Of a stretch of 64,000 bases of DNA, positions 60,714 through 64,000 are shown piece by piece (the first letter of the stretch is position 1; each line of letters begins with the position of its first letter). Under the pieces are notes generated by a model. It worked only from the letters and a program-made list of their open reading frames with translations. It made no database searches and had not been told where the DNA came from. This stretch comes from Escherichia coli (lineage in GTDB: Bacteria; Pseudomonadota; Gammaproteobacteria; Enterobacterales; Enterobacteriaceae): NCBI RefSeq assembly GCF_002854065.1, contig NZ_CP024147.1; one strand, given 5' to 3'. The translations under genes were made by a program, and so were the position numbers.

Positions 60714-60920
60714 ATGGAACTCTACAGAGAATATCCTGCATGGCTTATCTTTTTACGCCGTACTTATGCGGTTGCAGCGGGCGTTCTGACGCTGCCTTTC
60801 ATGCTTTTCTGGAAAGACCGCGCCCGCTTTTACAGCTACCTGCACCGCGTCTGGTCGAAAACCAGCGACAAACCGGTGTGGATGGATCAGGCCGAAAAGG
60901 CAACCGGTGATTTTTACTGA
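60714..60920 (+). CDS. ybfA: Small DUF2517 protein YbfA
   Basis: 68-aa [26 protein letters not shown]..., in the position downstream of the kdp promoter. Confidence 0.8.
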
Positions 60921-60935
60921 TTGCCTGCGCGCTTA

Positions 60936-60963
60936 AGCCAGCCTCGTATCAGGGGGCTGGTTT
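60936..60963 (+). terminator. Intrinsic terminator after ybfA
   Basis: Hairpin agccagcc-tcgtatcag-ggggctgg followed by ttt. Confidence 0.5.
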
Positions 60964-61704
60964 ATGTGTTTTACATCAACGTCTTCCATGATAATTAACA
61001 TGGAAGACGTTTACATCGTGTTATTCATTTCATCACTGTTTTAGCATCAAGTTTCGATAGTATCCTTTTAAAGGGCGGCTCAGGATGCGGTCGCCTCCAT
61101 TGTTGCTCTAAGCAACTATGTCGTCAGAAATCTTCAGTTAGGTTGCATACTCCATTACACACTTTCCTGAAACCTCAGGGGAAGGTGAGAAAGCCCCTGT
61201 CACTTTTGCTCATTCCAGCATCTAAATAAATTCCGAATTTTGCTATTAACATCGCTACCGCAAGAAAAGCAGATAGTAAAGAGAGTAATATATACTTTAT
61301 TGATATATTAAGAATAATTAATTGTTAACATATCTAATGCAATAAGATGTGTTGTTGTTAATAAAAAGCTTATAGATTTATAGTTAATAATTAAAACGCA
61401 TCCGATATTTCAGCTTTTTCTATGCAAGATACAATTTTATAAGGTGTCCATTTTTATATGGAGGCGGTAGCGTGTCTGTTACTAGTGGTTTTATTTGCAT
61501 GGTGAATATATTGGGATTGTTAAATGCATAACGATGTATCCGTTCTGGTCGTTGTAAACATTGCTAATTGCTTAATATTATTAGTGATTATGGCTGGAAA
61601 GATAAAATGTGTGATAAACGGTGATGGATATCACCTTCATGACTAAAAAATAAATAAAAACCCATCAATAAATAATTCATTTATTAAAAAGGACTCATAC
61701 CAGT

Positions 61705-62157
61705 ATGACGGAGTATTATCTCAATGAAACTGTTGTAACTTTTCCCGGGAATATTATTCAGGACAGTACGATTAATATGCTGCGCCTCAGCGATCCCGAC
61801 GCTGCACTCATTATCAGTCGGGGCCAGATGCAGGAAGGAGACGAATTAGCCTCCCAGATTGAACAGCAAATGAAAAAACTGGAGAAACAGGTAAAGGATC
61901 TTCACTACACGCCAGTTCAGGTAACACGGGTAGGGATTAATGACGGTGAACAAGGGCTGGAAATACAGAGCCAGTTTCTCCGGGGTAACGAGCAGGTGTA
62001 CCAGTGTCAGGTGGCATTTGTATTGCCGGGTGAGCGGGTCATGATGGCCTTCACCTACGCCAGAACCACACCGCTGACCCCGGCAGATATGACGCGCTGG
62101 GCTGAAATTAAAAAGAATCTGCGCTTCAGGATGCGGCAGGAAGCCAGGACGAATTAA
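61705..62157 (+). CDS. Eag-family (DUF1795) chaperone of a type VI secretion prePAAR effector
   Basis: 150-aa ORF whose N-terminus (YYLNETVVTFPGNIIQDSTINMLRLSDPDAALIISRGQ) has the DUF1795 pattern; ends 18 bp before an Rhs ORF that begins with a prePAAR motif. Confidence 0.75.
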   Translation: MTEYYLNETVVTFPGNIIQDSTINMLRLSDPDAALIISRGQMQEGDELASQIEQQMKKLEKQVKDLHYTPVQVTRVGINDGEQGLEIQSQFLRGNEQVYQCQVAFVLPGERVMMAFTYARTTPLTPADMTRWAEIKKNLRFRMRQEARTN

Positions 62158-62175
62158 TCATACAGGGAACGGGAC

Positions 62176-64000
62176 ATGGAAGAGGCATTCTGGGCGGCAA
62201 GACAGGGTGATGCCCTGCTGCATACGTCGTTTATGGCAGATGTGCTGGGGGCGGTGCTGGAGGTGGCCGCAAATGTCGTTATTGATGCTCTCATTGTCGG
62301 CACAACCTCGTTACTGGCGGCGTCAGTGGGGTTCACGATGGGGTGCACGGCCGTCGTGCTGACCGGTTTTGTGGCGGGTGTGGCGATGGTGTACACCGGC
62401 GTGACAGAAAAGGTCAGCGAAGCCTGTTCAGCCCTCGCAGATATGCTTTTCCCGCCTCAGATTGAAGGTTACATCCTCACCGGCTCTGGTGACACATGGA
62501 TCAACAGCAAACCTGCCGCGCGGGCAGCGGCGACTGCGGCATCGCGGCAGGACATTGAGGCGCAGGAGGCGCAGTCGAAGGCGGAACAGGAAGAAGCGCA
62601 GCGTCAGGAGGATGCCAGAACGTTCCGGGATGTGGCCGGGGAATATCTGGAAATGGCGGGGGCCATAGCCCTGGCGGTTAACCCGGTGACAGGGCCTGTG
62701 CTGATGTCCCGGGCGCTGCACGACCAGCTCAGTACGGAAGAAGGGCGTTCTGAAATGGTGGATGGCGTGACACATTTTGTGTCGGAACTATGGCAGCCCA
62801 CTGTGGCCAGTGCGGCCCCGGGCTCCACCCCGACCCCTGACGATAAAATCGACTGCCATAAACATCCTTCCTCACTGACGCAGTTTCTCGCACAAAAAAA
62901 AGCTGCCTTTCTGGATGACCCCCTGGGAACGGCCCTTAACCTGCTGAGTCCGGACGGTATGCTGGAAACCGCCTTTCAGGGAGTGAATGCGGTTATTGGC
63001 AGCATCAGTAATCTGTTCAAAGGCGATGACGAGCCGCCCGCAGCGGAATATATCGCGGAAGGCGCGCGGGATGTGCGTATCAACAGCCAGCCGGCGGCAC
63101 GCAGCGGGGCACGCTGTACCTGCGAGGCCAGGGTGGTGAATGAGCCGGGGAACGGGGCGTTTGTGTCACCGGATGTGCGCATTGGCGGTCCGTTACTGGT
63201 GGTCAGGGATATCAGAAGCGGCAGGTCGCAGATAACCCTGGTGGCAACTGTGGCGCTGATGTTTCTTCGCCCGGGCAAAATGCTTTCTAAAATCGCCTGT
63301 TTTGCTGCCAGTGTCGGGATGAGCATGCTGGCGCAGAAGGCCACCAGAGCCCTTCCGCATCCGGTCAATGCCGCCACCGGGGCCAAATACCTTGCCGATG
63401 ACGATGACTTCGATTTCAGTCTGCCGGGCCACTTTCCGCTGGACTGGCAGCGCGTGTACAGCAGTCGTGACGAACGCACGGAAGGAATGTTTGGTCAGGG
63501 CTGGAGTGTGATGTATGAAGTCAGCCTGGTGCGCACACCGGGTAACGCGGACGAAAACTGCATGACCTTTGTGTCGGGCATGGGGCGACGCCTGGATATG
63601 GAAGCCGTGCTGCCGGGGAGCGGGTTTTACAGCCCCGGCGAAGGACTGGCAGTCCGGCGTGGTGAGCAGGGGCACTGGCTTATCAGCAGCGATGATGGAC
63701 AGTTTTTTCTGTTTGAAGCCGACCCGCACAACCCGCAGCGCCAGCGGCTGAAAATGCTGGGCGACCGTAACAGCAACTGTCTGAATCTGTACTACGACGA
63801 CCGGGGACGTATCACTGAAATCAGCGGCGAACAGCAGCGTCCGTGCATCCGTCTGTATTACGAACTGGCGGCGCATCCCCGGCGGATGACACAGATTTAT
63901 CAGCATTTCCCTGAGACTGCACCTTTACTGCTGCGTCGTTACAGCTATGACGAGGCCGGCCACCTGAACGGCGTGTACGACAGCACGGGGCACCTGCTGC
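62176..64000 (+). CDS. Rhs-family polymorphic toxin, N-terminal 608 codons (prePAAR, TMD, PAAR, start of YD repeats); continues past the window end
   Basis: Own translation from ATG 62176: MEEAFWAARQGDALLHTSF (prePAAR AARxxDxxxH), hydrophobic helices aa 21-75, PAAR motifs (TWINSKPAAR; VRINSQPAARSGARCTC), second hydrophobic segment aa 352-388, then YD-repeat sequence (NLYYDDRGRITEISG; YSYDEAGHLNGVYDSTGHLL). No stop before base 64000. Confidence 0.85.
   Translation, partial: MEEAFWAARQGDALLHTSFMADVLGAVLEVAANVVIDALIVGTTSLLAASVGFTMGCTAVVLTGFVAGVAMVYTGVTEKVSEACSALADMLFPPQIEGYILTGSGDTWINSKPAARAAATAASRQDIEAQEAQSKAEQEEAQRQEDARTFRDVAGEYLEMAGAIALAVNPVTGPVLMSRALHDQLSTEEGRSEMVDGVTHFVSELWQPTVASAAPGSTPTPDDKIDCHKHPSSLTQFLAQKKAAFLDDPLGTALNLLSPDGMLETAFQGVNAVIGSISNLFKGDDEPPAAEYIAEGARDVRINSQPAARSGARCTCEARVVNEPGNGAFVSPDVRIGGPLLVVRDIRSGRSQITLVATVALMFLRPGKMLSKIACFAASVGMSMLAQKATRALPHPVNAATGAKYLADDDDFDFSLPGHFPLDWQRVYSSRDERTEGMFGQGWSVMYEVSLVRTPGNADENCMTFVSGMGRRLDMEAVLPGSGFYSPGEGLAVRRGEQGHWLISSDDGQFFLFEADPHNPQRQRLKMLGDRNSNCLNLYYDDRGRITEISGEQQRPCIRLYYELAAHPRRMTQIYQHFPETAPLLLRRYSYDEAGHLNGVYDSTGHLL

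Follow-up and report, generated by a model that had tools for sequence, protein, structure and literature searches.

The closest described relatives of the locus analyzed here are type VI secretion system (T6SS) modules in which vgrG, an eag gene (EagR/DUF1795) and a gene for a prePAAR-Rhs effector follow one another, such as those at the RhsE locus between ansP and yncE in Escherichia coli, the EagR-Rhs module of Serratia and the EagR1-RhsA module of Pseudomonas protegens. A second group is formed by the orphan rhsA-D genes of E. coli K-12 and enterohaemorrhagic E. coli (EHEC), of which rhsC follows ybfA; those of EHEC lie outside the vgrG islands and lack both vgrG and eagR (PMC7216683). We analyzed a 64,000-nt stretch of E. 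coli chromosome (contig NZ_CP024147.1, hereafter the window) and, within it, the 784-bp interval at 60921-61704 that separates the core gene ybfA from an eag gene and an rhs effector gene. As in the T6SS modules, the Eag gene stands directly before the prePAAR/PAAR/Rhs effector, and as with the K-12 and EHEC orphans, the pair occupies the hot spot after ybfA, its left junction likewise lying in the tail of the ybfA terminator and ISEc1, an insertion sequence (IS) of the ISAs1/H-repeat family, again being associated. We read the interval as a probable composite junction of non-coding DNA that forms the left boundary of the Rhs island between ybfA and ybgA (the classical RhsC locus), rather than as a structure built to be a leader.

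The right end of the interval carries the main evidence. In Escherichia sp. E1V33 (L010) and E. coli 24A16CRGN010 (L012) an intact gene for a 664-aa VgrG precedes the homologous eag, and positions 699/712-784 of the interval (61619/61632-61704) are 92-99% identical to the vgrG end and following spacer of these two loci; over the 73 nt of 61632-61704, made up of the last part of the relic and all of the spacer, the identity to L010 is 98.6%. Since the end of the intact vgrG and the spacer behind it match 61619-61704, the first part of this match (61619-61653) is a vgrG relic and the second (61654-61704) a vgrG-eag spacer, and the eag/prePAAR-Rhs pair is what remains of a vgrG-eag-rhs auxiliary operon of the T6SS after a cut about 35 nt before the vgrG end. 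A tblastn comparison of the intact VgrG with the interval recovered the last 11 codons only, and about 12 further E. coli genomes match the interval in the relic and spacer part only, under annotated Vgr genes. Because the operon was cut just inside the vgrG end, its native promoter was lost. The window pair thus named consists of Eag followed by prePAAR-PAAR-Rhs and falls short of the full module, no vgrG lying directly upstream of eag. A sequence-only reading of this DNA had called the whole interval a leader upstream of the eag-rhs pair; it is no dedicated leader of that pair: the last 85 nt or so are the vgrG 3' end relic and the vgrG-eag spacer, and the remainder is an orphan segment interrupted by ISs. 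From left to right, the main parts of the locus are as follows.

60714-60920, plus strand: ybfA (DUF2517; Pfam PF10725, E = 1.9e-33), annotated in RefSeq in all related genomes
60934-60974, plus strand: intrinsic terminator of ybfA, from a terminator scan and folding (stem-loop at 60934-60964, then the T-tail)
60978-61011, no strand assigned: perfect 13-8-13 palindrome, AACGTCTTCCATG-ATAATTAA-CATGGAAGACGTT, from sequence inspection and an inverted-repeat search
61012-61229, no strand assigned: orphan segment of ordinary composition (about 44% GC), from composition and allele alignment
61230-61618, no strand assigned: extremely AT-rich orphan segment (about 28% GC), from composition; presumed site of any eag-rhs promoter, predicted H-NS target and IS hot spot
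61619-61653, plus strand: vgrG 3'-end relic (...TVMDITFMTKK*) of about 11 codons with its stop codon at 61651-61653, from homology to intact vgrG ends
61654-61704, plus strand: ancestral vgrG-eag spacer of 51 nt with the eag ribosome-binding site AAGGA, from its match to the sequence after vgrG in L010
61705-62157, plus strand: eag chaperone gene of the DcrB/DUF1795 family (Pfam PF08786, E = 3.6e-19; 'DcrB-related protein' in RefSeq)
62176-64000, plus strand: N-terminal part of the prePAAR-PAAR-Rhs effector gene (Pfam PAAR_motif, DUF6531 and RHS_repeat), which exceeds the window end

Residues 7-16 of the Rhs effector form the prePAAR motif AARQGDALLH, as the motif has been defined (bioRxiv 10.1101/2020.10.28.356139). 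Variants of the spacer pair with distinct alleles of the vgrG module, the window allele resembling that of E1V33 and the ET826 allele that of 24A16CRGN010, a pairing which would mean that eag-rhs alleles have been exchanged between loci by homologous recombination ending in a short arm; it suggests that the relic and spacer could act as the left homology arm for eag-rhs exchange with full vgrG modules. Our scan of genome contigs for Eag used a single protein as query and returned two close Escherichia loci. Where other Escherichia strains have the intact VgrG module between ansP and yncE (RhsE), it also holds a gene for a 176-aa putative effector and a lipoprotein gene. Several strains carry an internal deletion of eag, with about codon 9 joined to the LEIQSQF region and a full-length rhs kept (L005 7790-7990, L006 7781-7984, L029 7304-7510 and L014 at about 850-900, corresponding to about 61730-61960 of the window), and XJ34 and TB06052 have large deletions that run from eag into rhs; this recurrence implies that the chaperone gene is decaying in many lineages. 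A small inverted repeat, GGTGAT-GGAT-ATCACC, spans the point at which the orphan segment gives way to the vgrG relic (61620-61635), with arms of a length within chance expectation; together with the palindrome it places hairpin-forming sequence at both ends of the orphan segment.

At its other end the interval grows out of an ordinary E. coli chromosome, which runs in the window from mrdB through kdpFABC to ybfA, the final core-genome gene ahead of the island. The terminator of ybfA, which the sequence-only reading overlooked, begins 14 nt past the stop codon and has the G+C-rich stem-loop and T-rich tail of an intrinsic terminator, with a stem of 12 pairs (6 of them G-C), a 7-nt loop and the tail TGTGTTTTAC; it is kept in all alleles, O157 included, and lies directly upstream of the palindrome. 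The O157/K-12-type allele (ybfA, 240 bp, rhsC) is identical to the window up to about 60964, still similar up to 60972 and unrelated beyond. As the two become unrelated within the T-tail, island DNA appears to begin there, which puts the core/island junction at about 60965-60973 and makes the palindrome the first feature of the island. On the other side of ybfA, the AT-rich divergent intergenic region between kdpF and ybfA holds, just upstream of ybfA, an imperfect inverted repeat of 20 nt (60545-60564/60615-60634; 85% complementary, 50 nt apart).

The whole island can be read in a near-identical complete genome, that of strain 100416, in which it consists only of the leader, eag, rhs (4635 nt), an immunity-like open reading frame (ORF) of 294 nt and a symE homologue on the minus strand, and is bounded by ybfA and ybgA-phrB. 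This homologue, of the SymE-family type I toxin, lies on the opposite strand at the right island end, in the interval between the rhs immunity ORF and ybgA (L030 13679-14008; also L001 and L028). In the window, the composition of the ybfA-eag interval changes from 43.7% GC at 60921-61229 to 28.5% at 61230-61699, against a mean of 51.2% for the 64 kb, and 61230-61699 has the lowest GC of any 470-nt stretch in the window. The AT-richness noted from the letters alone is therefore real, its quoted AT run lying at 61359-61398, but it is uneven, being a property of the right half. Also as noted then, the interval holds no ORF of 60 codons or more; the longest between ybfA and eag, with ATG, GTG or TTG as start, encodes 40 aa.

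Among 5426 complete E. coli genomes, the leader was found in about 199, in single copy and always after ybfA, in alleles with identities of about 100, 95, 91 and 86% that are mosaic. It replaces the K-12-type rhsC leader, which is present in 3885 of the same genomes, usually twice (a median of two copies per genome), is 240 bp long, has a sequence unrelated to that of the window and precedes Rhs genes without eag; an eagR-type rhs with a vgrG relic is a minor variant at the RhsC site. The earlier characterization of the interval as horizontally acquired, H-NS-type DNA stands insofar as the island is variable and, for the extreme AT content, in the right half only. ISs lie within the leader in about one-quarter of its carriers and represent at least four independent insertions, which were mapped from L007, L008 and L011: an IS5 (ISKpn26) at 60962-60964 in strain MIN6, and ISEc1 copies with target duplications of 10-11 bp at 61444-61454, 61466-61476 and 61575-61584. 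The eag-rhs genes are intact despite these interruptions by IS5 and by three independent ISEc1 insertions. All ISEc1 copies are oriented toward eag, which with three independent events is not significant; they may activate expression by outward transcription, or reflect a preference for AT-rich targets. The idea that leaders free of ISs go with decayed eag-rhs genes was rejected, given that JML285 and strain 100416 have intact genes behind uninterrupted leaders.

Between the terminator tail and the vgrG relic, the middle segment of about 650 bp (about 60978-61618) is island-specific. It has no relative elsewhere in the 5426 genomes or elsewhere in the window, no match in phages and, save for an E. 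coli chromosome that is mislabelled, none in plasmids. It cannot be taken for ancestral intergenic DNA either, the DNA downstream of ybfA being unrelated in Salmonella (ybfA, 110 bp, phrB), in Enterobacter mori and in a divergent Escherichia lineage. In that lineage (L022 3208-4872; YbfA 96% identical) the gap between ybfA and ybgA has a different terminator, an element resembling enterobacterial repetitive intergenic consensus (ERIC) sequences and small orphan ORFs, one of them for a CdiI_3 immunity homologue, and no rhs. One patch, at 61070-61220, is hypervariable: here the identity of the window/XJ34 allele to the four others aligned is no more than 72-82%. To the right of the patch, over the remainder of the leader, the TB06052 allele and the window agree at 96-100%, which suggests recombination with an unsampled divergent allele. 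Tandem Repeats Finder (TRF) reported no tandem repeats; a degenerate direct duplication of about 75 nt at 61246-61321/61325-61394 (72-76% identity), whose copies begin with TTAACAT and end with AATAATTAA, is not scored by this program. The segment was also considered as a hidden pseudogene, an idea that was dropped after stop-to-stop frames in five alleles, the ratio of nonsynonymous to synonymous substitution rates (dN/dS), protein search and Pfam were all negative; none of 10 open frames compared with Pfam has a match there. The smaller candidate features of the interval are these.

61178-61324, minus strand: stop-to-stop frame of 49 codons with a hydrophobic stretch, open in four of five alleles
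61355-61384, plus strand: sigma-70-like site TTGTTA-18-TATAGT, a consensus match only
61458-61505, plus strand: short ORF 1, MEAVACLLLVVLFAW, open in all alleles read
61524-61646, plus strand: short ORF 2 of 40 aa, with an inner 18-aa version starting MAGKIK (MAGKIKCVINGDGYHLHD) at 61590-61646, not conserved
61552-61581, plus strand: sigma-70-like site TTGTAA-18-TATTAT, 124 nt upstream of eag, a consensus match only

The minus-strand frame at 61178-61324 is not a gene: it resembles a membrane helix, but no start codon is conserved in it, its dN/dS is 0.84-1.39, and a 44-aa probe from it found no homologue among 5.8 billion proteins and no Pfam match. Both short ORFs pointed out in the sequence-only reading exist, and they differ in their fate. 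The start codon and frame of the second are lost in three of five alleles: in ET826, MP1 and 20Ec-P-124 the ATG of the 40-aa version has become ATA and an indel of 1 nt shifts the frame, and in MP1 and 20Ec-P-124 the 18-aa version has ACG for ATG and an early stop. This ORF terminates inside the vgrG relic, in a different frame.

The palindrome that opens the island is perfect, as had been noticed, and one base longer on each side than was then reported (13-bp arms around an 8-nt spacer). Perfect inverted repeats with loops of up to 12 nt are expected at 0.05 (arms of at least 12) or 0.017 (arms of at least 13) per dinucleotide-shuffled 64-kb window, so that the palindrome is not due to chance. 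Its hairpin has a predicted energy of -19.8 kcal/mol as RNA (z-score = -8.3) and -13.7 kcal/mol as DNA (z = -8.9), with 6 G-C pairs among 13 in the stem, and is followed by TTTACATC on the plus strand and GATGTAAA on the minus strand. A rho-independent terminator was rejected, as there is no T tract (at least 5 T in 8 nt) on either strand and no call by the terminator scan; the other six long perfect inverted repeats of the window all have the form of terminators (A-run, GC stem, T-run), which the palindrome does not resemble. The right arm shares at 60998-61007 an exact 10-mer, ACATGGAAGA, with the region of the rhs start codon (62174-62183), so that the left arm is the complement of the region in which rhs translation is initiated; by chance, 1.8 kb should hold about 1.5 such pairs.

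In the set of 5426 genomes, the palindrome occurs in 114, all at the ybfA locus, with an invariant sequence in all 114, and a 60-nt query around it is at least 95% identical in all but one of them; in the alleles read, differences near it are confined to the flanks. The query had no match at other E. coli loci or in viral contigs, and two in metagenomes (241 million records), both gut contigs with the ybfA locus. The usual two 'places' per genome are consistent with a self-match on both strands; E. coli strain C11 (NZ_CP010133.1) gives four, which indicates that the region is there twice, whether by a real duplication or through an assembly artefact. Present at a single locus in 114 genomes and not dispersed, the palindrome is no repetitive extragenic palindromic element (REP) or bacterial interspersed mosaic element (BIME), ERIC or miniature inverted-repeat transposable element (MITE); its arms are unlike the ends of ISEc1 or IS5, and the flanking 8-bp direct repeat TTTACATC was discarded as a target duplication, the repeat being present in the window allele only. 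In the alleles of the 20Ec-P-124 type (about 85 genomes) the palindrome is missing as a clean gap of 27 nt. Absence from related rhs leaders, which the sequence-only reading had named as a refutation, is what we find: the palindrome is missing from about 43% of the leaders at the same locus, from the eag-rhs modules preceded by vgrG and from the K-12-type rhs leaders.

The 27-nt indel is edged by a short direct repeat, ACGTCTTCCATG against ACGT-TTCCATC, in a direct-inverted-direct layout. Such a layout is the signature expected of hairpin-stimulated deletion or of template-switch insertion (quasi-palindrome mutagenesis). Parsimony across the allele classes favours deletion, MP1, which is also in the 86% class, retaining the palindrome, with a polarity that lacks an outgroup given the unrelated DNA downstream of ybfA in Salmonella, Enterobacter mori and the divergent Escherichia lineage. 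We take the palindrome to be, most likely, a neutral trace left by a template switch in replication or by a hairpin-stimulated indel, and at most an extra stem-loop behind the ybfA terminator.

Several observations weigh against this reading of the interval as a decaying junction with a neutral palindrome, and are best considered together with its rivals. The palindrome is invariant where its flanks carry 6-8% substitutions, for which the neutral chance is about 0.06-0.1 per diverged allele; this is weak evidence of constraint or of correction from arm to arm, and it does not outweigh the absence of the palindrome in 43% of the carriers. It would fit a functional cis-element, either the operator of a dimeric regulator or an RNA or DNA hairpin that insulates ybfA from the island, backs its terminator or stabilizes the 3' end of its mRNA, which is also what a highly non-random sequence with a strong hairpin, invariant in 114 genomes though its flanks vary and placed 14 nt past the stem of the ybfA terminator, might suggest. 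We nevertheless consider such an element unlikely: the genomes without the palindrome have the remaining locus unchanged, it lies about 700 nt from eag with no regulator gene adjoining, perfect arms of 13 bp exceed typical operator half-sites, neither strand has the U-tract that would make it a terminator, no other locus carries the palindrome, and behind an efficient-looking terminator it would be rarely transcribed. The palindrome is also the first element of the island, 5-13 nt from the junction, and this may be more than coincidence. Its position just inside the boundary, together with an exact 13-8-13 geometry and an asymmetric spacer (the core of loxP/FRT sites having 13-bp inverted arms and an asymmetric spacer of 6-8 bp), would suit the core site of a tyrosine recombinase that docks or exchanges the eag-rhs cassette beside ybfA. 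Such a site is hardly credible here, as the whole XJ34 island has no second arm (with up to 2 mismatches), the window has only two more near-matches (27900 and 42732, with 2 mismatches each), both of them single arms a long way from the island, and in E. coli genomes the palindrome matches only itself, on both strands; plasmids, phages, viral contigs and other loci do not contain it, the annotation from ybfA to ybgA shows no recombinase, and the island variants with and without the palindrome share one junction. That a recombinase encoded elsewhere captures or swaps eag-rhs cassettes at the RhsC hot spot, with the palindrome as its lox/FRT-like docking or hairpin site, strikes us as equally far-fetched.

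The same question of function arises for short ORF 1, which has the same start, stop and frame in each of the six distinct alleles read, with changes that are synonymous or conservative (V to I, A to V, F to L). This retention and a strongly hydrophobic sequence might point to a functional micro-peptide, similar to a type I toxin or acting as a regulatory leader peptide. We regard this as quite improbable, since 3-6 substitutions are too few for a test of selection and leave a dN/dS indistinguishable from that of other frames, the nearest Shine-Dalgarno-like sequence (AGGTG) is weak and about 13 nt upstream, no RNA structure, antisense promoter or terminator is associated with the ORF, and the T-rich codons of AT-rich DNA give hydrophobic peptides by default; moreover, ISEc1 splits the ORF in JNE151685-type genomes, and in CI5 and MIN6-type genomes it is cut off from the upstream region. 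A leader that encodes a small RNA or a structured 5' untranslated region controlling eag-rhs, which the length of the 5' region and two promoter-like sites facing eag could be taken to indicate, is very improbable. An Rfam scan with E up to 10 gave no match below E = 1 (the best being the greA leader at E = 1.3, noise driven by the hairpin), and in 15 folds tiled over both strands no segment folds better than its shuffles once those with the terminator or the palindrome are set aside (z from -1.6 to +1.4; from -0.7 to +0.6 at 61012-61229, and no folding signal on either strand at 61230-61618); the sole terminator is that of ybfA, and the alleles differ by indels and IS insertions. The promoter-like sites are themselves unenriched, three (two on the plus strand) against 5.0 +/- 2.1 in shuffles, and near-matches to the H-NS motif TCGATAAATT (up to 2 mismatches) are only about 3-fold enriched, with 4 in 784 bp for about 1.3 expected from the window-wide density; both counts weigh against our own reading of the interval. 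That reading also gives no account of where the 650-bp segment came from.

The composite junction remains our preferred reading of the interval. It would consist, from left to right, of the ybfA terminator, an orphan segment of about 650 bp drifting near-neutrally, some 35 nt of the vgrG end and the 51-nt vgrG-eag spacer, and would have arisen when the orphan segment came to connect the ybfA terminator tail with a vgrG-eag-rhs operon cut near the end of vgrG. If read-through from ybfA is blocked by the terminator, as its structure predicts, transcription of eag-rhs would have to start in the AT-rich part (61230-61618) or in an inserted IS. Of the two sigma-70-like sites there, that at 61355-61384 has a conserved -10 hexamer and, in other alleles, CTGTTA as its -35 hexamer; that at 61552-61581 has TGTTAT as its -10 hexamer in the MP1-type and 20Ec-type alleles, and in JNE151685 an ISEc1 insertion lies on this hexamer with eag-rhs intact. 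The AT-rich half has the composition expected of an H-NS target (28.5% against 51.2% GC, in horizontally variable DNA), and three of the four motif near-matches fall within 61223-61309. H-NS reportedly binds and silences AT-rich horizontally acquired DNA with preference, in work ascribed to Navarre and to Lucchini in 2006. From its composition the segment would be of the H-NS-coated, silenced type, and silencing of a putative promoter within it is plausible by analogy with established xenogeneic silencing. The recurrent IS insertions in the leader recall the activation of bgl by ISs, and it is a possibility that the AT-rich leader acts as a bgl-like silencer that ISEc1 insertions of the same orientation switch on.

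For annotation, our results mean that it would be wrong to treat the gap between ybfA and eag as a conserved rhs leader. Being a derivative without vgrG, the eag-rhs pair would need an accidentally acquired promoter for its expression and a VgrG encoded elsewhere for its delivery. The locus offers a small example of how an Rhs hot spot is rebuilt, with cassettes replaced at the tail of a terminator, repeated IS hits and alleles exchanged via a short homology arm. Our literature search found nothing on the ybfA-eag leader, and what is new here is limited to the recognition of the vgrG relic and to a polymorphic, locus-specific palindrome; the feature is otherwise an ordinary decaying island junction, the result bears on no open question, and the palindrome is a curiosity.

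The locus can be compared with several known systems. Its perfect palindrome, present or absent by one clean 27-nt indel, resembles the hairpin indels and quasi-palindrome template switches of the type described by Ripley and Lovett. The Shigella element Ssr3 sits on the other side of ybfA, between ybfA and kdp. H-NS represses the EHEC T6SS (PMC13141884). With H-NS-silenced regulatory regions such as the bgl silencer or T6SS promoters, and with the 'h3R' intergenic region of EHEC hcp3-vgrG3 (PMC13141884), the locus shares strongly AT-rich non-coding DNA before T6SS-related genes of horizontal origin, in which putative internal promoters come after a terminator; the window leader has no sequence similarity to any of these regions. 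With respect to the vgrG-eag-rhs modules, the locus keeps the 51-nt spacer and the last 11 or so codons of vgrG nearly unchanged, and has, at the ybfA (RhsC) locus, an orphan non-coding segment of 650 bp in the place of vgrG.

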